Virus record (IMG/VR): IMGVR_UViG_3300050034_000403
Location: 1-64,000 of that record
Length of the DNA stretch: 64,000 bases
Source: a virus
Strand: one strand, 5' to 3'
Below are positions 1,538 to 63,382 of the stretch, piece by piece. The notes under the pieces are model-generated. The model did no database searches. It was not told where the DNA came from and saw only the letters and a program-made list of their open reading frames with translations. Both the position numbers and the translations under genes were made by a program. The stretch's first letter is position 1, and every line of letters begins with the position of its first letter.

Positions 1538-1981
1538 ATCACAACGTAGTCAAAGTGCGTCGTAAAGATGCAACAAAGCGCAATAATTTTCTATTTAGGA
1601 GCGTTGCAGTAGCAAAGCAGTCGCAGTGCATCGCACAGATGCAACATTTGCACCACTTGAAAAATGCACAGAATTGGTAGCAGTAAGACAGTTGAAGTGC
1701 ACCGAGCAGGTGCAACACCTGGAACTAATCGACCGTGTAGTCAAAGTGCATCGAACAGATGCAACGTTATGCGCCGTGACTTTGGCCAAAGGAATCACCA
1801 CATAGCAATGCTGTTGAAGTGCATCGGATAGATGCAACCGGCAATTGATCGCAGCAACTTTTGGGGATCTGGAGCACTAGATAGTTAAAGTGCATCGCAT
1901 AGATGCAACTCCATCTTCAGCGCAGTATCGTTGCTGACAGTTCCGTCGCAACGCAGTATGAGTGCATCGAACAGATGCAAC
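1538..1981 (+). CRISPR. Degenerate CRISPR array 1: 7 repeats, ~34-36 nt spacers (one shortened unit)
   Basis: Repeats ending ...AGTGCATCG-N4-GATGCAAC at 1574, 1645, 1716, 1765, 1838, 1909, 1981; ~71 nt period; same family as array at 61892-63195. Confidence 0.85.
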
Positions 1982-24400: not shown

Positions 24401-26131
24401 AATGCAGACAGCATTGCCGCTCGAATCAATGCCAATGGAGAATTGGTCTACGCACTGTGTCGGAGTGGTTTTGAACACCACAGAGGGCATGTCCGCGGTC
24501 GTTAAATCTCGGAAGATGTCGGTGTAGCAAGTCCCAGTAGTGCAGGTGTAAGACTCCGAGGTCAGGAAGGCGTGGGTATCTGTGGTCGTAGGCAGATCGG
24601 CCAAAACCAAGTCCCGATACTCCGCAGCGTAGCAGGTGTCGACTCCACCCGTACCGCAAGAGTATGAGCGGGAGGTCAGGAAGGCGTTCAGATCCGAGGA
24701 TGTGGGCAGATCAAGAAGCACCATATCGCGGAAGGTCGGAGCCACCGCCGTTGTTCCCGAGGCAGGGCCTGCGTAGATCACGTTGGGATTTTCCACATCC
24801 GCCGAAATGGTAATCACGCCCGAACTTGTGATCGGCGTATTCGATACGCTAAATCCCGTAGGAACCTCAATGCCGACACTGGTTACCGTGCCATTTTCTC
24901 CGCACCCTGCCCCTGTGGAGTTGATGGTTCCAGAAGTATCTGTGTACAAGCAGCCAGCATCGGTAGATCCCAGTGCAACAATCGAGAGCGAGTTCGACAA
25001 TTGCAGTGTCTTGGCGGTCATGTCTCCCGTTGCATCCAACGTGGCAGACGACGCGCTCAGAATCATGCCACTGGGCGACACAGAATAGTACGGCATCGCA
25101 TGTACTGTGCCCGCATCAACCTGACCCGTAATCGACACAGGGCTGATGCAGCTCAAGGTATTCACGTCGTTGAGCGTGAAGCTGGTTATAAGCTCCCCTG
25201 TTGGGCAGGTGAATGCGGACGCGGGCAACCTGGCAGCGGCCAGCGTTCCGCTTGTAATGTTGCTGGCATTCGTCGTATCCGTCGTTGCCGAGGTTGCAAG
25301 CCCAGTTACCTGCGAGGCTGTGATAGTCCCCGTGAAAATCCCAGAAAAGATAGAGCTGGAAGTTGCTGCAATGAGGTTTCCGTCGCTATCCCAGGCTACA
25401 ACGACATTTGTGCCCACCGTTCCTGACACGGTGGCCAATTCGGCAGTTGAGCCAGAATAGCTGAACGGAAAATCGGACGTGGTAAGACGGCGGAAAGTAG
25501 GAATCCCTGACGTCCCGTCTGGAGAGGCAAACACAAGGTTTTCTGATTCACTCGCTAATGTGACCGCGAACGTGCCCGCCGTTGTGATTGGCGAACCGGA
25601 AACAGAGAAAATGCTCGGCATCGTCAAGCCAACAAAGGTCACACCGCCGCTTCCGCTTCCCGTTCCGCAAGGTGACCCGGTCGACGTGAAGTTCCCATCC
25701 ACGTCGGTTCCAACGCACTCGTTGGCGACAGCGCCGGGAAAAGTAGTGGCTATGCCAGCAGAACTCGGATAAGTGCTGAGCAGCGTCACAGGAGACGGAT
25801 AGGTGTTTGGAGAAACGCCTCCGCTTAACACAATATCGTATGCTTGGGAGGACAAAGCATAGAGCAACCAGGACGCATCTTCATTTGCCGTAAACGGGTT
25901 TGTGAGTGGCGTACTGGAAGAATCCGAGTAAATTGTCGCCAGCGTGGTCGTCCCGGTAAGGTACACCGTTACCGTGCAGTAAGGAATCAGACCTTGCTGA
26001 TAGTTTGAAGAAAGCAAACCCGACACTGTAGCTTGAGACGCGCCAAGGTCGCAATATCCCGAGATGGGATCAACAGCACCCATTGCGACAGCCGGCGAGA
26101 TCAATAACAATGCAAGGATAAACTTCTTCAC
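21485..26131 (-). CDS. Long fibre/adhesin-like protein with signal peptide, repeated shaft units and Cys pairs
   Basis: MKKFILALLLISPAVAMGA; TVYLTGTTTLATIYSD...NPFTA head-binding-like domain; ~7-8 GTVTSV.L..P..F.VS.SP.T.SGT repeats. Confidence 0.7.
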   Translation of the reverse strand: MKKFILALLLISPAVAMGAVDPISGYCDLGASQATVSGLLSSNYQQGLIPYCTVTVYLTGTTTLATIYSDSSSTPLTNPFTANEDASWLLYALSSQAYDIVLSGGVSPNTYPSPVTLLSTYPSSAGIATTFPGAVANECVGTDVDGNFTSTGSPCGTGSGSGGVTFVGLTMPSIFSVSGSPITTAGTFAVTLASESENLVFASPDGTSGIPTFRRLTTSDFPFSYSGSTAELATVSGTVGTNVVVAWDSDGNLIAATSSSIFSGIFTGTITASQVTGLATSATTDTTNASNITSGTLAAARLPASAFTCPTGELITSFTLNDVNTLSCISPVSITGQVDAGTVHAMPYYSVSPSGMILSASSATLDATGDMTAKTLQLSNSLSIVALGSTDAGCLYTDTSGTINSTGAGCGENGTVTSVGIEVPTGFSVSNTPITSSGVITISADVENPNVIYAGPASGTTAVAPTFRDMVLLDLPTSSDLNAFLTSRSYSCGTGGVDTCYAAEYRDLVLADLPTTTDTHAFLTSESYTCTTGTCYTDIFRDLTTADMPSVVFKTTPTQCVDQFSIGIDSSGNAVCISSGVVTSVGLSAPDIFTVSDSPVTGSGTLALTLNTETAKTFFAGPVSGSAAVPTFRVLTATDMPSPLFSTAPTLCSGEYATGIDAYGDAVCVAAGSVTSVGLSAPSIFTVTNSPVTSSGTLTMTLASEAINTVFAGPGSGSAGTPTFRALVAADIPANITSNTTGSAGTLTGTVAIANGGTGATTAAVALTNLGAAGLATANTFTGTQTAPVFNATTGFEISGSYGTSGQCLISTGTGTSYQTCTGGSVTSVALTVPSILSVTGSPITTTGTFAITLATETANTVFAGPASGSAAIPTFRAIVNADLPTTLTASTSGNAATATALATTPTDCSLNHVSYGITAAGNAYCSTDSAAFLLSSQTFTGTNTFQGVTDFQNSLKIYSSVPTLDGTFTGTQITENSVLVNVLELTIPSGQEFYVTGGTTHLNNSLTVEGTTILNGALNVGGTATMNTTNFDSTATLSALNTATSSNNYASNNLNFNSSYYDASSAVQTPKWTIATTIGTGTTPANNLVFSFADTGTGVSSHTVVLPSAQLTGLTGCLYADSSGNVLSNGQNCGTEAGGTVSTFSAGNLSPLFTTTVTNPTTTPALTFTLSTAAAHTFFGNNTSATATPAFEAIGSSDLPTDVAYLDVAQSWTGAQTFNGDVIVGSSYTIALGSLTAGNCVQATTGGVLVSASLACQSGTVTSVAVTVPAQMTISGSPITTSGTLAFGINGTGTGDLLATASVKGTSGHLVTWTSSGDLGDSGGSGGTGTVSSVGLSLPSDFTVSNSPVTTTGTLTAVWATTPTGTGAIVRATSPTLVTPNIGAATATSLVDTGAAATSGDYCLQIDASGNITNTGSSCAAATSARDVIHLGYNGAPLAAGQVFGYFLPSADQIITIPSGCTNSRAVAATAATASTTLSITQCTSGFSSCSVVGTIVFAASGTVGTFTCSSAITLSGVASNGLYIVAPATADTTFGNVAVSIYGTHN

Positions 26132-45590: not shown

Positions 45591-45637
45591 ATCACTATTC
45601 AGAAATTTTCAGGGCAAAAAAGCTGAGCATGGCTAAT

Positions 45638-46250
45638 GTTGCGTCTATTCGGCGCACTGTAGAAGCTGTTTGATTGTTGCGCTTATCCAGCGCACTATGA
45701 CTATCTTGCAACCTTTTTATAGCCAAAAAGCCGTGATGATTCTCGTGTTGCATCTACTCGATGCACTGAAACTGCCTTGTGACTTTGTGCTATTCCTTGA
45801 CGCGTTGCGCTTTCTCGGCGCACTCATACGTCTATAAATATCCCTTGTGTATTATTGCGCTTATTCAGTGTATTGTTGCGCTTATCCAGCGCACTCCTAC
45901 TTTGTCGCACATGTTGCATCTCTCCGATGCACTTTGACTGTACACCCCTACCTATCCATGTTGCATCTGCTCGATGCACTCATACTGTGCTCCTCAACCT
46001 ATCCATGTTGCGCCTATGCGGTGCACTGAAACCGCATTACTGCGAAATCCAAGGCTCACGTACGTTGCATCTTCTCGATGCACTTCAACCAGTCTGCTAT
46101 ACAGCAGACAAAAACGAATGCCAATGGAGGTTGCATCTGTTCGATGCACTCATACGGATTTGGTACGGGATGCTGTTGTTGCGCTTATCCAGCGCACTAG
46201 AACATCTTGTCAGCTCATTCTTCAGGTTGCGCCTGCTCGACGCACTCATA
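45638..46250 (-). CRISPR. Compact atypical CRISPR-derived array 2: ~13 repeat hairpins with short spacers
   Basis: GTTGC-N11-GCACT cores at 45638, 45676, 45747, 45804, (45854), 45875, 45913, 45960, 46007, 46064, 46130, 46178, 46226; two keep the full 37-nt repeat. Confidence 0.8.
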
Positions 46251-46299
46251 TGACACCTCAATACTTTGCGCCAAGCCCCCGCGTTGTCAACAAATTTCT

Positions 46300-46827
46300 T
46301 TAGCTCCGCGATGCCAGAATTTTGGTTGCCTCAGTCAATGTAATCATAAGCGTTTGTGGATTGATCGGCGAAGCGATGAAGCCGTATTTCTCGTAGAACT
46401 GTTTTGCATCCTTAGAAATTGCATTTACCAAAACCGCACGAATGCCGGCAATCTCAGCAGCCTGCAAAGTGCGCAAAACCGCATCCCGCAAAAGATCCGC
46501 CCCAATCCCGCGATGCTGAAAGTGTTCATCCACAGCCAGTCGTCCGATCAGCATCACGGGCACTGGATCGGGCATGTTGCGCTTGATGCGTGTGGGTGCC
46601 TCGACATGTGCCACAGCACCAGTCGCCAGCGCATAAAAACCAACGACATGACCTTCTGAGCACACCACTTTAGTACGCGATGCTCCATTCTTCTCGTTTT
46701 GAAGTGCCCGCGTCTTCAACCACAGATTGAGAGATGATTCGCCACAGCAGAATTGCGTAAGATCATGTTCCACTGTCAGCTTTTCTGGAGCGGTAATACG
46801 GATCTTGGACGCCTCTACTCCTCCCAC
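46300..46827 (-). CDS. GNAT acetyltransferase toxin (TacT/AtaT-like)
   Basis: F.CG..SLN.WL; PDPVPV.LIGRLAVD...Q.RGIG..LL.DA; FYEKYGF. Confidence 0.9.
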   Translation of the reverse strand: MGGVEASKIRITAPEKLTVEHDLTQFCCGESSLNLWLKTRALQNEKNGASRTKVVCSEGHVVGFYALATGAVAHVEAPTRIKRNMPDPVPVMLIGRLAVDEHFQHRGIGADLLRDAVLRTLQAAEIAGIRAVLVNAISKDAKQFYEKYGFIASPINPQTLMITLTEATKILASRS

Positions 46828-47099
46828 GATGGTTTCCTCGCTAGCAGCTTTGCCAGTTTTGGGTTGGACTTGGGAGGATTGTCTAGCATGTCATTGAAGC
46901 GTTGGAACTCTTCTTTCCCGAGACGGAAGTAGCAGCGATCAAGCAAAATCGCTTCCGCTTCCCTGCACGCCGCATCCAGCATGAAATCCGTGCGGTTCCT
47001 TCCCAGCACTTCTGCTGCACTATCAATTAATGTCTTTTGCCGCAGATTGGCACGCAAATTGATGTTCGTAGCCCGCAATTCAGCAACGACAGAACCCAT
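46815..47099 (-). CDS. DUF1778 RHH antitoxin (TacA/AtaR-like)
   Basis: INLR....QK.LI..AA..LG..RTDFML.AA..EAE..L; F..ML.NPP..N..L. Confidence 0.9.
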   Translation of the reverse strand: MGSVVAELRATNINLRANLRQKTLIDSAAEVLGRNRTDFMLDAACREAEAILLDRCYFRLGKEEFQRFNDMLDNPPKSNPKLAKLLARKPSWEE

Positions 47100-47161
47100 G
47101 ACCCACCTCCTGAATGTATACACAATGAGCGTACAGCATCGTGCGCACAATGTAAAGCGCC

Positions 47162-47443
47162 TTAGTACAGCTTGCGGCAGTCATAACACCAGAACCCGTC
47201 AGGCCGCTGGAAACCCTTGTGCCCCTTGTCGTGTGGGCATCTGGCAAGGCCAGCAGGACTCGAATCCGCGACAGGCCGATTATGAGTCGGTTGCTCTACC
47301 GGCTGAGCTACAGTCCCGCTGTTCCACTTCCGCGTGCGACACTCGGGATTACGGCATTGCGCGGGTATCGGTTTACGAACGTCTACCGGCCAAAGATACC
47401 CACACACGTCGCATCGATATGCCTCCATCTTAGTTTTGCCCAT
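47162..47443 (-). CDS. Small Zn-ribbon protein
   Basis: CDVCG..W...P.QC...C...W and C-terminal C.H...WCYDC. Confidence 0.6.
   Translation of the reverse strand: MGKTKMEAYRCDVCGYLWPVDVRKPIPAQCRNPECRTRKWNSGTVAQPVEQPTHNRPVADSSPAGLARCPHDKGHKGFQRPDGFWCYDCRKLY
47242..47317 (-). tRNA. Degenerate tRNA-Met/Ile2 (CAU) nested inside the Zn-ribbon ORF
   Basis: 76 nt, D-arm UAGCUCAGCCGGUAGAGC, CCGA-CUCAUAA-UCGG, UUCGAGU loop, 3' CCA; weak acceptor and T stems. Confidence 0.6.
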
Positions 47444-47576: not shown

Positions 47577-47894
47577 TTACTCATCCCATGAATCTGCAAA
47601 ACCAATAGCCCCATACCCGTCTATCGTAATAATGAAAAGGTCCTGCCACCCAATGCGCGGATCACCATCCTTGCTGTACCGCCTTGCATGTATCGCATCA
47701 GGAGCAACATCGATGAAATGAGCAAGATCCTGTGCAATATGCCGCTTCACATCATCCACACTCGCAAACGTCCGAACCGTCTCCATCGACTCTGCCAAAC
47801 CACCACGATGAAACCTAAAACGTATTCCCACTTCCCCACCCCTCCTAACACCGCAGCGCATAAACTGACAACTCCTATCCTGCCACATACGCAA
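47577..47894 (-). CDS. Hypothetical protein (start uncertain)
   Basis: RFHRGGLAESM.TV...D.RIGW...I...G..GF motif seen in phage proteins. Confidence 0.5.
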   Translation of the reverse strand: MRMWQDRSCQFMRCGVRRGGEVGIRFRFHRGGLAESMETVRTFASVDDVKRHIAQDLAHFIDVAPDAIHARRYSKDGDPRIGWQDLFIITIDGYGAIGFADSWDE

Positions 47895-60192: not shown

Positions 60193-60432
60193 ACATGCAG
60201 ATCATCTTGCGGCAACTCGACAGCGACGACTTTGGAAAGATGCTGAAAGTCTGCAAAAGCTCACGCGAACGGTTTTACCTGGAAGCCGCGCGCATTAATC
60301 CAAACTTTGAATACCACATCGATCTGCCCGGCCCCGATGGCCCTACCAAACCCGTCGACATGCAAACGTGGCTTGCCGACAAAGAAAGGTTCCCCGACGA
60401 CTGAGCAAAATGATGGCACAATGGGAGGTCAA

Positions 60433-61140
60433 ATGACGGAAAAAGTACACTTTCGCAAGGATCTGACAGGCAAAGTCTTTGGTCGGCTTACTGTAACGGG
60501 ATACTCGCATCAAGCCGGAAAGTCATCGGTTTGGAACTGCCTTTGCGTCTGCGGAAATACGACTCAAGTTCGCCAAAGCAATCTTACGAGGGGCGGCGTT
60601 GTTTCCTGTGGTTGCCGCAGAAAAGAAATTCAAAATCACATCAAGTTCTATTCTCCAGAATCTGCTCTTACGCATGGCTGCGCTCGCACACGGTTAGGAA
60701 AAAGGACTGCTGTCTATACGATATGGTGTGGGATGAAACGGCGTTGTTCTTCACCAAAATGCAAATGCTTTTCGTACTACGGCGGACGTGGAATCAAAGT
60801 CTGCAAACGATGGGAAAAGTTTGAAAACTTCCTGGCGGATATGGGTAAGCCAAAACCGGGAATGACACTTGACCGCTTTCCGGATAAAGACGGCGATTAT
60901 GAACCGACAAATTGCCGATGGGCTACATGGAAAGAGCAGGCAAACAATCAACGCCCCCGTTCATTTTTCATTGACAAGCCTGAACATGCTGACATTTTGC
61001 AGAAAATCTTATCGCTGCACTCTTTGGGCAAAACTACCAGAGATATTGCAGACGTGCTGAATTCTATGAAAATTATGTCACCCCGTGGAAAATGCTGGTG
61101 GGGATCAGGCATTGATCGTATCTTGCGCAATCATCGATAG
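60433..61140 (+). CDS. HNH-family endonuclease with C-terminal recombinase-type HTH
   Basis: DLTGK.FGRLTV, W.C.C.CG, SCGC, YGGRGI.VC.RW, NCRWAT..EQ.NN. Confidence 0.85.
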   Translation: MTEKVHFRKDLTGKVFGRLTVTGYSHQAGKSSVWNCLCVCGNTTQVRQSNLTRGGVVSCGCRRKEIQNHIKFYSPESALTHGCARTRLGKRTAVYTIWCGMKRRCSSPKCKCFSYYGGRGIKVCKRWEKFENFLADMGKPKPGMTLDRFPDKDGDYEPTNCRWATWKEQANNQRPRSFFIDKPEHADILQKILSLHSLGKTTRDIADVLNSMKIMSPRGKCWWGSGIDRILRNHR

Positions 61141-61147
61141 GAGAAAA

Positions 61148-61828
61148 ATGGAAGCTGTTTCATATATGCGGTGTTCTGGCGAAAGCCAAGTTCTCGGCGA
61201 TACGTGGGAACGTCAGCGCGCAGTTATCGTTAAATATGCCGCCGCCAATGAAATTGCAATTGTCGATGAATTCCGGGATGAAGGCGTAACAGGCAAGATG
61301 GAGTTGGAAGGACGTGCCGGTCTTTCAGCCTGCATACAATTCATCCGTGAAAAGGGAATCAAGCTTGTTTTGGTTGAGTCCAGCGACAGATTGGCCCGCG
61401 ACATGATCGTGGCAGAAGTTGTTGTACGCGAGTTTCAAAAGATTGGAGTTCGCGTCATTTCTGCGTCTGGCGGTATCGATCTAACCGAGGGAGACGATTC
61501 CAACCCCACGGCTAAACTAATTCGTCAGATTCTAGCGGCCGTCGCCGAGTTTGATCGCTGCGTAATCGTACTTAAGCTACGCGGTGCGCGCCAGCGCAAA
61601 AAGGCTAGGGGAGAACGAGGAGATGGCCGGCACGCCTTTGGAGAAAAGCCTGGAGAAGCCGTGGTTCTCGCACAGATTCGTGCGTTAAAGGCCCAAGGAG
61701 AGACGATCAGGACCATTGCCGACACCTTGAACGCCGCCGCCATTCCAACGCGCATGGGGGGCACCTGGAAGGCCGGGACGGTGGCAAAGATCCTTGCTCG
61801 TGAGAAATTTCACAGCGCTTGCGCGTGA
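61148..61828 (+). CDS. Serine recombinase (resolvase/invertase family)
   Basis: YMRCS, D.G.TG...R.GL, V...DRLARD, AEF.R..I..KL..AR; C-terminal IA..LN....TR.G..W. Confidence 0.9.
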   Translation: MEAVSYMRCSGESQVLGDTWERQRAVIVKYAAANEIAIVDEFRDEGVTGKMELEGRAGLSACIQFIREKGIKLVLVESSDRLARDMIVAEVVVREFQKIGVRVISASGGIDLTEGDDSNPTAKLIRQILAAVAEFDRCVIVLKLRGARQRKKARGERGDGRHAFGEKPGEAVVLAQIRALKAQGETIRTIADTLNAAAIPTRMGGTWKAGTVAKILAREKFHSACA

Positions 61829-61891: not shown

Positions 61892-63195
61892 GTTGCATCT
61901 ATGCGATGCACTTCAACTGCATTGCTACCGATATGGTAGCGCTGTCGCTACGGATTTCGCGTTGCACTTATCCAGTGCACTTCAACTGCATTACTACGCT
62001 GGTGGGTCCTTGTAAGTTGCATCTACGCGATGCACTCAAACTGCTTTGATGCTTGCTACCTTTTGGCACATTTCCATTTTTCCAGTAGTTGCATCTATGC
62101 GATGCACTGAGACTATTTTGCGACACGGAGTTGAATCAAGAAGCAATAAGCCTGTTGCATCTATGCGATGCACTTTGACTGCTTTGCTATCCCACTAATA
62201 AGCCTTTGCAGGATCATTTTCCCAGTTGCATCTGCTCGATGCACTTTAACTACCTTGCGACCATGTGAGAATGCTGGTGGCTCTCTCTTGACGAAGTTGC
62301 ATCTGCTCGATGCACTCAAACTACATTGCGACACGGCTACGGAAGCCGTCTTGCTGCTGCTATGAATGTTGCATCTGTTCGATGCACTTTAACTACCTTG
62401 CGACGACTGTTTATGCTTTTGAACTCACACACTACGACCGTTGCATCTGTTCGATGCACTGAAACTACATTGCGACAGCAGAAAAAATCGAGAAATGATT
62501 CCGATACCATGTTGCATCTGCTCGATGCACTGAAACTACCTTGCGACGAAACCTGGAAAACCTGTCCACCGGGACCGTAATAGTTGCATCTGCTCGATGC
62601 ACTAAAACTATCTTGCGACGTTCGACTTCAGCCAAGAGAGACATGACCGCGAGTGTTGCATCTGTTCGATGCACTTAAACTATCTTGCGACCCTATAATT
62701 TGTCCAGACACTAGCGTCCACAACCGTTGCATCTGTTCGATGCACTGAAACTGCCTTGCGACGCATGTACTCCCAAAGCGTGTACTCTTGATGCAAGTTG
62801 CATCTGTTCGATGCACTGAAACTACATTGCGGCTTGGTGAGCCCTTGGAAAGTGTTAGCAGGTCATCAAGGTTGCATCTGTTCAATGCACTGAAACTATC
62901 TTGCGGCATGATCGAGCAGTTGAGCAATACAAGGTGCGATACGCGTTGCATCTGTTCGATGCACTTTAACTACCTTGCGACACGAAATTGCGGGACTCTT
63001 TTACCAGGTGATGGATGTTGCATCTGTTCGATGCACTGAAACTACATTGCGACCTAAACATCACCATGCAGGACAAGCTCGACCTCCAGTTGCATCTGTT
63101 CGATGCACTGAAACTACATTGTGACTCGCCACCTTCGGAAGAAACAAGAAGACCAGAAGTTGCATCTGTTCGATGCACTGAAACTACATTGCGGC
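61892..63195 (-). CRISPR. CRISPR array 3: 19 repeats/18 spacers, consensus GTCGCAATGTAGTTTCAGTGCATCGAACAGATGCAAC (37 nt)
   Basis: ~71-72 nt period, mostly 33-37 nt unique spacers; degeneration increases leftwards (trailer), leader on right. Confidence 0.97.
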
Positions 63196-63372
63196 TGCGC
63201 TCATTATAACGCTTTGCGATTGAAGAAGATCAAGGACGTTTTTCGCGAACCTCGCAAATCTGCGCTCTTCTAGTTGGGATGCTCGATACAATGCCCTCAT
63301 TATCTCCTTCAAAATCATTTTCTTACGCCTTGCGCGAACCTCCCGCCTTTTTCCGGCCGCTTAGGGTTCGCG
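63196..63372 (-). promoter_or_regulatory. CRISPR leader
   Basis: CGCGAACC/GGTTCGCG inverted and direct motifs at 63244, 63333, 63365 as seen in I-C-type leaders; TATAAT at 63208-63203. Confidence 0.8.
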
Positions 63373-63382
63373 GAAAACCAGC

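Follow-up and report, generated by a model that had tools for sequence, protein, structure and literature searches.

Why does a phage carry a CRISPR array in which most repeats have lost their 5' half, and is such an array a working set of guides or the remains of one? The question is raised by a compact array, here called A2, at positions 45638-46246 on the minus strand of a window of 64,000 nucleotides (nt), the whole stretch of DNA analysed, which forms the first 64 kb of the 89,228-bp IMG/VR record IMGVR_UViG_3300050034_000403 (82% complete; the full 89-kb record is labelled G000 below). The record is a temperate tailed phage of peat-soil Acidobacteria, with genes for terminase, portal, capsid, tail fibre, integrase, RecT, a PD-(D/E)XK nuclease, a primase-helicase and a methylase, and the exact A2 sequence is present in 14 DNA runs from peat and permafrost. 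We propose, at what we judge to be even chances, that A2 is a working, streamlined guide cassette; its own leader would drive transcription, and a Cas12m-like effector would process the transcript into CRISPR RNAs (crRNAs) of ~45-48 nt for binding or silencing.

The first step is the repeated element itself. A pattern search with AGTGC-N3-G-N7-GCAAC recovered 12 units on the minus strand of A2, and 39 matches in the whole window against 1.9 expected by chance; a broken thirteenth copy (45854-45874) is the product of a 21-nt tandem duplication. The location and the ~13 copies given in an initial annotation of this stretch are therefore borne out, as 12 intact units plus one broken. The element folds into a 6-bp stem with a 5-nt loop, and 12 positions are invariant over all 12 copies. 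Stem cells are 95% paired, with compensatory changes at three of the six pairs, and the observed score was matched by none of 500 shuffles; the three inner pairs that switch on both sides are A-U/G-C, U-A/C-G and C-G/U-A. The covarying stems of the initial annotation thus pass the comparison with random substitution that it had itself set. One of its stem pairs, TGCGCC/GGTGCA, was a misreading and is absent from A2, where the actual variants are TGCGTC/GGCGCA and, with one mismatch in each, TGCACC/GGCGCA, TGCGCC/AGCGCA and TGCGCC/GACGCA. At least five stem alleles are interleaved within the array. A minimum free energy fold of the whole array forms only 5-7 of the 12 hairpins because the repeats pair among themselves, and is uninformative.

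Covariation bears directly on the least flattering answer to our question, namely that A2 is a neutral wreck: an old array at a recombination-prone locus, eroding by slippage and deletion, whose RNAs have no role. On that account hairpins would persist merely because units without them become unrecognisable, but the 12 invariant positions and the compensatory stem changes in all 12 cores argue against it. We hold neutral decay to be unlikely, though a serious contender, and return to it below wherever the evidence touches it.

Is the element a CRISPR repeat at all? It forms the 3' end of a 37-nt repeat, and this repeat, with ~34-nt spacers, builds four regular arrays in this phage besides A2, all of the same repeat family:

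1554-1981, plus strand: array A1, seven units
61892-63179, minus strand: array A3, 19 units, with a leader at ~63196-63380
66481-67206 of G000: regular array, 11 units
88621-89212 of G000: array A5, nine units, ending 16 nt short of the contig end

An origin outside CRISPR, as a coding repeat or a member of another structured repeat family, could be argued from the plus-strand open reading frames (ORFs) of 109-132 amino acids (aa) that overlap A2 and from an Rfam search of the element, which matched no CRISPR-DR family and no other family; a literature search with the repeat sequence found no report. Such an origin is nevertheless very improbable, as the overlapping ORFs match other arrays only, via the repeat, and arrays flanked by cas12-cas4-cas1-cas2 have exactly the same 21-nt core.

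Those arrays belong to relatives in which the repeat stands beside a Cas12-family gene. In G306/G308 an ORF of 745 aa, P0001, lies directly before the array on the same strand, a 61% identical copy of P0001 precedes the repeats on an Acidobacteriaceae metagenome-assembled genome (MAG) contig (L038, from bog_218), and L093-L095 follow the same pattern of a Cas12m-like gene and then an array. In L089 an effector-Cas4-Cas1-Cas2 series precedes 11 identical repeats with the A2 core, and the adaptation genes are recognised by domain (PF01930, PF01867 at 8e-93, and PF09827). These loci identify the repeat as a genuine type V CRISPR repeat, in agreement with the type V identity assumed in the initial annotation, and answer its call for Cas loci with this repeat (G306/G308, L038, L089, L093-L095).

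The effectors of these relatives are 745-753 aa long, and a P0001-type effector is encoded at L072:2907-5144. P0001 matches PF07282, a Cas12f1-like TNB domain, and its AF2 model (predicted local distance difference test, 81.7) has Cas12m2 (8hhl) as its best Foldseek match (E = 4e-18). The top four matches are all Cas12m or Cas12m2, with template modelling scores (target) of 0.51-0.62, ahead of Cas12f and TnpB, and phmmer aligns P0001 with Cas12m over the RuvC/TNB end (E = 2e-5). In most members of the family RuvC motif I has D or E, motif II E and motif III D, and with these carboxylates largely conserved the effector may still cleave DNA. The family comprises more than 100 protein clusters, none of which bears a CRISPR-related name where a source names them. 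An effector homologue with 80% identity, P0004, lies on a 99.5-kb contig that may be a fuller relative of this phage.

Within the 89-kb record no effector was found, either by Pfam, PHROGs, PADLOC and NCBIfam on all large ORFs or by tblastn, an effector profile and PF07282 over the record, and no cas gene was detectable in it. The record ends with the 16 nt past A5, and the gene order here, RecT-PDDEXK-A5-contig end, parallels RecT-PDDEXK-array-effector in G308; this synteny suggests that the phage's own effector gene was cut off by assembly and probably lies just past the contig end. Repeats inside single regular arrays of the phage are very heterogeneous (loop GNNNA, two stem alleles and a variable 5' half), whereas those of arrays adjoining cas4-cas1-cas2 (L089, L094) are homogeneous, which fits a loss of acquisition in this phage. 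Two overlapping serine-recombinase ORFs with Resolvase and Recombinase domains (60307-61828, plus strand) adjoin the distal end of A3, and their homologues adjoin arrays in L013, L016, L024 and L026.

How, then, does A2 differ from a normal array of this family? In other arrays the gaps between successive cores are ~50 nt, made up of a 34-nt spacer and the 16-nt 5' half of the next repeat, and A1 and A3-A5 keep the regular period (37 + ~34 nt). The A2 gaps measure, in order, 27, 27, 45, 36, 26, 26, 17, 50, 36, 50 and 17 nt; start-to-start spacings run from 38 to 71 nt and three of the 11 gaps are canonical, so A2 lacks the regular period. Against a comparison set of 296 other units from 25 loci, short gaps number 8/11 in A2 and 14/254 elsewhere (Fisher p = 8e-8), and compaction is specific to the A2 locus. 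Short gaps are also scattered through relatives' otherwise normal arrays, so truncation does occur as a mutational process, a point for the wreck.

Which parts have been removed? A position-weight matrix derived from the 5' repeat halves of regular units (79 distinct sequences) was applied to the 16 nt immediately upstream of every core in A2. The full 16-nt half is kept in 4/12 units (46064, 46007, 45747 and 45676), the last 7 nt alone in three, and in five the half is undetectable. GT at -5/-4 is retained in 9/12 units (p = 3e-9), and the conserved handle is therefore ~26-28 nt; that this dinucleotide survives where the rest of the 5' half is lost speaks against neutral erosion. The guides fall into classes: 20 nt followed by a full 5' half (gap 36; units 4 and 9), 19-20 nt followed by a 7-nt remnant (gaps 26-27; units 1, 2, 5 and 6), ~29-34 nt (units 3, 8 and 10), and two 17-nt gaps. 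A length of ~20 nt is thus reached by two routes, 20+16 and 20+7, and this clustering at 19-20 nt is not the random distribution that decay would leave. The parts that A2 has lost are those that type V maturation discards, and the parts that it has kept are the content of a mature crRNA. The short gaps and the loss of the 5' half in most units, both noted in the initial annotation, are confirmed by these counts, as is its likeness to mature type V crRNA, a ~26-28-nt 3' handle with a ~20-nt guide being the expected part; of the ~21-27 nt of repeat that it took to be retained, the 21-nt hairpin core stands and the extent has been corrected to the longer handle.

A reading by eye in which the 16-nt 5' half is kept and the spacers are 10-11 nt long was dropped on the position-weight test and on the Telmatobacter bradus homologue of guide 2. 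Unit 2 is read as 20 + 7 and not as 11 + 16 because its guide agrees at 19/20 positions with the beginning of a full-length spacer, which belongs to a two-unit array on the T. bradus chromosome (L053:9635-9728). The units are, in order of transcription from the proposed leader:

46199..46246, minus strand: unit 1, core at 46226-46246, stem TGCGTC/GGCGCA with a G-U pair; 27-nt gap of the 20-nt guide CTGAAGAATGAGCTGACAAG and 7 nt
46151..46198, minus strand: unit 2, core TGCGCT/AGCGCA; 27-nt gap of the guide AACAGCATCCCGTACCAAAT and CCGTATG
46085..46150, minus strand: unit 3, consensus core; 45-nt gap of a 29-nt spacer and the 16-nt 5' half of unit 4
46028..46084, minus strand: unit 4, core; 36-nt gap of the 20-nt guide GTACGTGAGCCTTGGATTTC and the full 5' half of unit 5 (p = 0.0006)
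45934..46027, minus strand: units 5 and 6, a 47-nt tandem duplication; guides ATGGATAGGTTGAGGAGCA and ATGGATAGGTAGGGGTGTA, each with a 7-nt remnant after it
45896..45933, minus strand: unit 7, core and 17-nt gap, of which the last 7 nt alone are weakly repeat-like
45825..45895, minus strand: unit 8, core TGCGCT/AGCGCA, the broken 21-nt copy, and a 29-nt gap of AATACACAAGGGATATTTATAGAC and GTATG
45768..45824, minus strand: unit 9, core, 20-nt guide GCGTCAAGGAATAGCACAAA and the full 5' half of unit 10
45697..45767, minus strand: unit 10, core and a canonical 50-nt gap of a 34-nt spacer and a 5' half
45659..45696, minus strand: unit 11, core TGCGCT/AGCGCA and a 17-nt gap
45600..45658, minus strand: unit 12, last core, with one stem mismatch, and trailing sequence with a T6 run

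The guides of units 5 and 6 are identical over their first 10 nt, and their divergence is confined to the distal half. A is the first base of 8/12 guides (p = 0.002), with no such bias visible by eye in the phage's regular spacers. A terminator scan of the sequence after A2 called none.

Could these units be expressed? Upstream of unit 1 lie a short leader and, beyond it, a block of three genes:

46260..46266, minus strand: AAAGTAT, candidate -10 region, with the same sequence and spacing in L096
46284..46289, minus strand: TTGACA, -35-like hexamer of the leader, read directly and conserved in L096
46300-46827, minus strand: tacT toxin of the GNAT family
46815-47150, minus strand: tacA antitoxin
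47242-47317, minus strand: tRNA-Met(CAT)

L096 is the closest relative that we reached (portal and terminase at 94% aa identity, locus flanks at ~80% nt identity). Its orthologous locus shares TTGACA-N17-AAAGTAT with the A2 leader although the 17 nt between differ, and there the leader directly follows the homologue of gene 47577-47894, the tRNA-Met-tacA-tacT block (46300-47317) being missing. The leader is hence part of the array, whereas the toxin-antitoxin pair was inserted later and is context outside the cassette. The perfect TTGACA that the initial annotation placed at 46289-46284 is present; its statement that there is no acquisition leader needs qualification, a short promoter-like leader being present and conserved in L096. 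A consensus promoter scan of the leader called no promoter, as the -10 matches only 3/6 positions. Metatranscriptome assemblies from two studies contain contigs over parts of A2 at depth 3-8, one of which begins in tacT, covers the leader and reaches into unit 1 (46205-46460). We take these RNA-library contigs as evidence of presence only, and draw no conclusion from the parts of A2 that they leave uncovered or from chimeric joints within the array.

The same relative shows what is held constant at this locus and what is not. L096 has the same first-core allele after the leader (also found in T. bradus) and compact units with 23- and 18-nt gaps, and its array ends in a final guide and a GC-rich, terminator-like hairpin. 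It shares no guide with A2, so the A2 guides are not a fixed set: of the selected, fixed cassette proposed in the initial annotation, the compact locus with its leader persists, and the guides all differ. Both accounts draw on this comparison. That the body of the array is not conserved favours a wreck; that the leader, first core and compact form are kept despite flanks at ~80% argues against it. With the leader and first core kept, guides replaced and units duplicated internally, the A2 locus is persistent in form and fluid in content. A2 owes its shape to duplication, deletion and recombination and not to Cas1-Cas2, and part of this evidence suits erosion as well, in that the phage encodes RecT and a PD-(D/E)XK nuclease and the array carries 21-nt and 47-nt tandem duplications, a broken unit, three mismatched cores and 17-nt gaps.

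Part of the A2 sequence is also found in other phages. A ~95-nt block (core, guide GCGTCAAGGAATAGCACAAA, 5' half and core) is near-identical in G002-G004, three unrelated ~40-kb phages that have few genes in common with this one, lack an effector and carry one mini-array of 3-5 units each; guide 9 is 20/20 identical in all three and matches T. bradus at 16/20. G002 also has the preceding unit, the A2 unit 8 guide AATACACAAGGGATATTTATAGAC being common to both phages with two differences, and the unit 11 gap resembles the sequence directly after the G003 mini-array (14/17). Since the block is identical even in the supposedly dispensable 5' half, recent horizontal transfer explains it better than long-term conservation. 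Spread of an A2 block into unrelated phages counts against a neutral wreck. In these ~40-kb phages the mini-array (L055:1151-1887 in G003) lies in the lysis region, with a 41-aa hydrophobic ORF on one side and a convergent gene for phage lysozyme on the other. In cultured T. bradus DSM 23630, orphan arrays of this repeat family (L053:9635-9728 and L037/L042) lie at ~861.6 kb and 1031.9-1034.2 kb, and the two-unit array abuts a truncated M16 peptidase gene; the genome has no PF07282 (TNB) protein, no P0001 homologue and no Cas1, and the effector profile matched nothing in the MAGs behind L050, L040 and L026.

What might the guides recognise? Regular spacers of the family match rival elements: three protospacers have 5'-TTC or 5'-TCC flanks, and the candidate protospacer-adjacent motif (PAM), 5'-TYC, rests on these three. 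In an Acidobacteriales MAG (L050), one spacer of a chromosomal array agrees with this phage at 27/28 positions (G000 75742-75769) and G306/G308 at 18/18, with 5' flanks ATCC and ATTC, and a G305 spacer matches G002. The L050 array (L050:3973-4276) adjoins NADH dehydrogenase genes.

The A2 guides themselves gave nothing above chance in searches that covered their own phage and eight relatives, six effector loci, 301 genomes of Acidobacteriaceae, IMG/VR and Joint Genome Institute (JGI) metagenomes. In these searches, which take up the comparison with host and phage genomes suggested in the initial annotation, no guide found a target. At up to four mismatches, matches in the own genome and the 8 related phages equalled those of reversed-sequence controls. 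Guide 9 as an exact 18-mer or 20-mer hit only the arrays themselves in IMG/VR and JGI metagenomes, and at up to two mismatches it had 4 matches in the 301 Acidobacteriaceae genomes against 2 for the control, none in a common gene and one in the unpublished genome G029, which bears on no other result; guide 2 had no match in IMG/VR. No A2 seed of at least 10 nt occurs in the six effector loci, a small sample in which 9-mers are at chance level, and none lies near tacAT. Among seeds of at least 11 nt, only one stands out: the 13 nt with which guide 3 begins (CTCCATTGGCATT) recur in the phage genome itself at 24428-24440 (minus strand, ATT flank) in an ORF of 1548 aa, a large virion gene, possibly by chance (about 0.03-0.3). 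A 16/20 match of guide 1 to the methylase gene (77736, CAC flank) was rejected as chance level. The lack of any target is what a wreck would predict.

Alternatively, the units could serve counter-defence, in the manner of Cracr or Racr RNAs, by loading into or soaking up the Cas12m-like effectors of a hostile host or prophage; they would redirect those effectors onto their own genes or toxins or out-compete hostile crRNAs, with a mix of stem alleles to suit several variants of the effector. The L050 spacer match indicates that the phage is under attack by the same repeat family, and the effector-less ~40-kb phages G002-G004 carry a mini-array with the same guide. In G002 (L054) the trailing guide, directly behind the last core, has a 10-nt seed (CTTGAACGGT, GTC flank) at codons 5-9 of the L038 effector gene (L038:170-179), but the overall chance of that match is ~0.03 and it lies outside A2, whose own guides lack such seeds of 10 nt or more in the six effector loci. 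The L038 Cas12m-like gene is split by a frameshift near residue 45. Precedents exist in Cracr arrays (10.1101/2024.10.29.618823) and in the solo vrRNAs of VIPR-null phages (10.64898/2026.10.15.759431). Single units in A2 lack a terminator after them, however, and the phage's own 46 normal units presumably need the same effector, which would make a pure decoy self-defeating. We therefore rate counter-defence as rather unlikely.

Stem alleles differ by effector clade (L094, L095) and five or more are interleaved in A2, which speaks for counter-defence and makes it tempting to speculate further. Perhaps A2 is a polyvalent guide or decoy cassette in which the alleles GCATC, GCGCT, GCGCC, GCGTC and GCACC each fit another Cas12m-like orthologue, so that one transcript would arm or jam the effectors of several rivals, with ready hairpin-guide blocks traded horizontally between unrelated phages as a shared currency of their conflicts. 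We think this version doubtful, more so than simple counter-defence.

The streamlined guide cassette that we prefer would work as follows. A minus-strand transcript would start from the short leader TTGACA-N17-AAAGTAT, perhaps with extra transcription by read-through from tacT. An effector, encoded past the end of the incomplete record or by a co-resident prophage, would bind each 3' repeat hairpin and cut a few bases upstream, releasing crRNAs of ~45-48 nt (a 26-28-nt handle and a 19-20-nt guide) with little or no trimming. The array would not grow by Cas1-Cas2; its content would turn over by duplication, internal deletion and recombination with other phages' arrays, and deletions would survive only in the parts lost at maturation, the 3' end of the spacer and the 5' half of the repeat. 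The guides would most likely steer binding or silencing of competing mobile elements or of host loci outside the present sampling.

Several observations weigh against this cassette. Three cores have a stem mismatch, one copy is broken, and the two 17-nt gaps cannot hold an 18-bp heteroduplex, all signs of sloppy evolution. Normal units show moderate conservation (up to 1.5 bits) of the 5' repeat half, which the cassette treats as dispensable and which the effector may need. The RNA contigs are blind to strand, ends and processing and may be DNA carry-over. To these must be added the missing effector gene in the 89-kb record, the absence of a target for any guide in the searches made, and the block shared with G002-G004, whose identity at dispensable positions makes it no proof of guide selection.

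If processing and loading of the units do occur, A2 is a naturally multiplexed array cut to the footprint of the mature crRNA for a compact Cas12m-like family. It would reveal which repeat bases the effector truly needs, and would mean that phages keep guide sets by recombination without Cas1-Cas2 and that guide blocks travel between unrelated phages. It would also offer a ready design rule for short multiplex arrays to be used with a small DNA-binding effector. If A2 is inert, it is instead a record of how an array decays after acquisition stops.

How does A2 compare with known systems? Virus mini-CRISPR arrays and Racrs, attributed to Medvedeva and colleagues in 2019 and Camara-Wilpert and colleagues in 2023, are reportedly arrays without Cas genes, or solitary repeats, that exploit or jam the effector of another genome. 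Mini-arrays have full repeats and spacers, and Racrs are without guides. The 3-5-unit arrays of G002-G004 fit the picture of a virus-borne mini-array. A2 differs from both, in that its units are truncated repeats with guide-sized inserts; Racr-like, guide-less candidates in it are the two 17-nt gaps and the broken unit only.

The closest fold to the relatives' effector is type V-M (Cas12m; PDB 8hhl, 8hio and 8pm4), and both the ~20-nt guides and the 5'-TYC flanks fit it. Published Cas12m (PMC11013384) needs no tracrRNA (trans-activating crRNA) and processes its own pre-crRNA; its 5' PAMs are T/C-rich, and it binds DNA but does not cut it. The heteroduplex that it reads is 18 bp long, so that the 19-20-nt guides of A2 are long enough. 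The differences are that the present effectors have 745-753 aa against ~600, with 13-15% identity, and that L089 has cas4-cas1-cas2 whereas V-M has none.

Viral Cracr RNAs join the hairpin part of the repeat to a short guide and are sometimes stacked, with the effector encoded elsewhere; their guides match cas or toxin promoters over at least nine PAM-proximal nt, and their arrays have 2-3 units, none in type V-A (10.1101/2024.10.29.618823). Like them, A2 consists of viral units outside a cas locus that keep the hairpin part of the repeat. Unlike them, its guides match no cas or toxin promoter in six effector loci, it has 12 units, and four full arrays stand alongside it. As to the terminator that follows a Cracr guide, none was called after A2, and the L096 array ends in its GC-rich hairpin.

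In Cas12k transposons a single unit of processed-crRNA size (~13 nt of the repeat 3' end and a 17-nt spacer) lies beside 37+35 arrays, has a perfect chromosomal target for transposon homing and depends on a tracrRNA (10.1101/2021.02.06.429022). The A2 units are likewise processed-crRNA-sized and sit beside normal arrays, but there are 12 of them and no target was found; general scans showed no transposon genes among the ORFs, and no search aimed at them was made. VIPR-null phages have lost their effector and kept guide RNAs, the solo vrRNAs, for a rival's effector (10.64898/2026.10.15.759431). These are unrelated to A2 in RNA and protein family, having GGYNN repeats, a pseudoknot tail and noncontiguous recognition.

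In its manner of working A2 is therefore like the Cracr, Cas12k and VIPR units, but it belongs to none of these groups: no promoter match was found for it, no transposon genes were seen, and its effector family is another. What is new in A2 is its scale of 12 units, the interleaving of stem alleles, the four full arrays alongside, and the unnamed Cas12m-like family to which its repeat leads.

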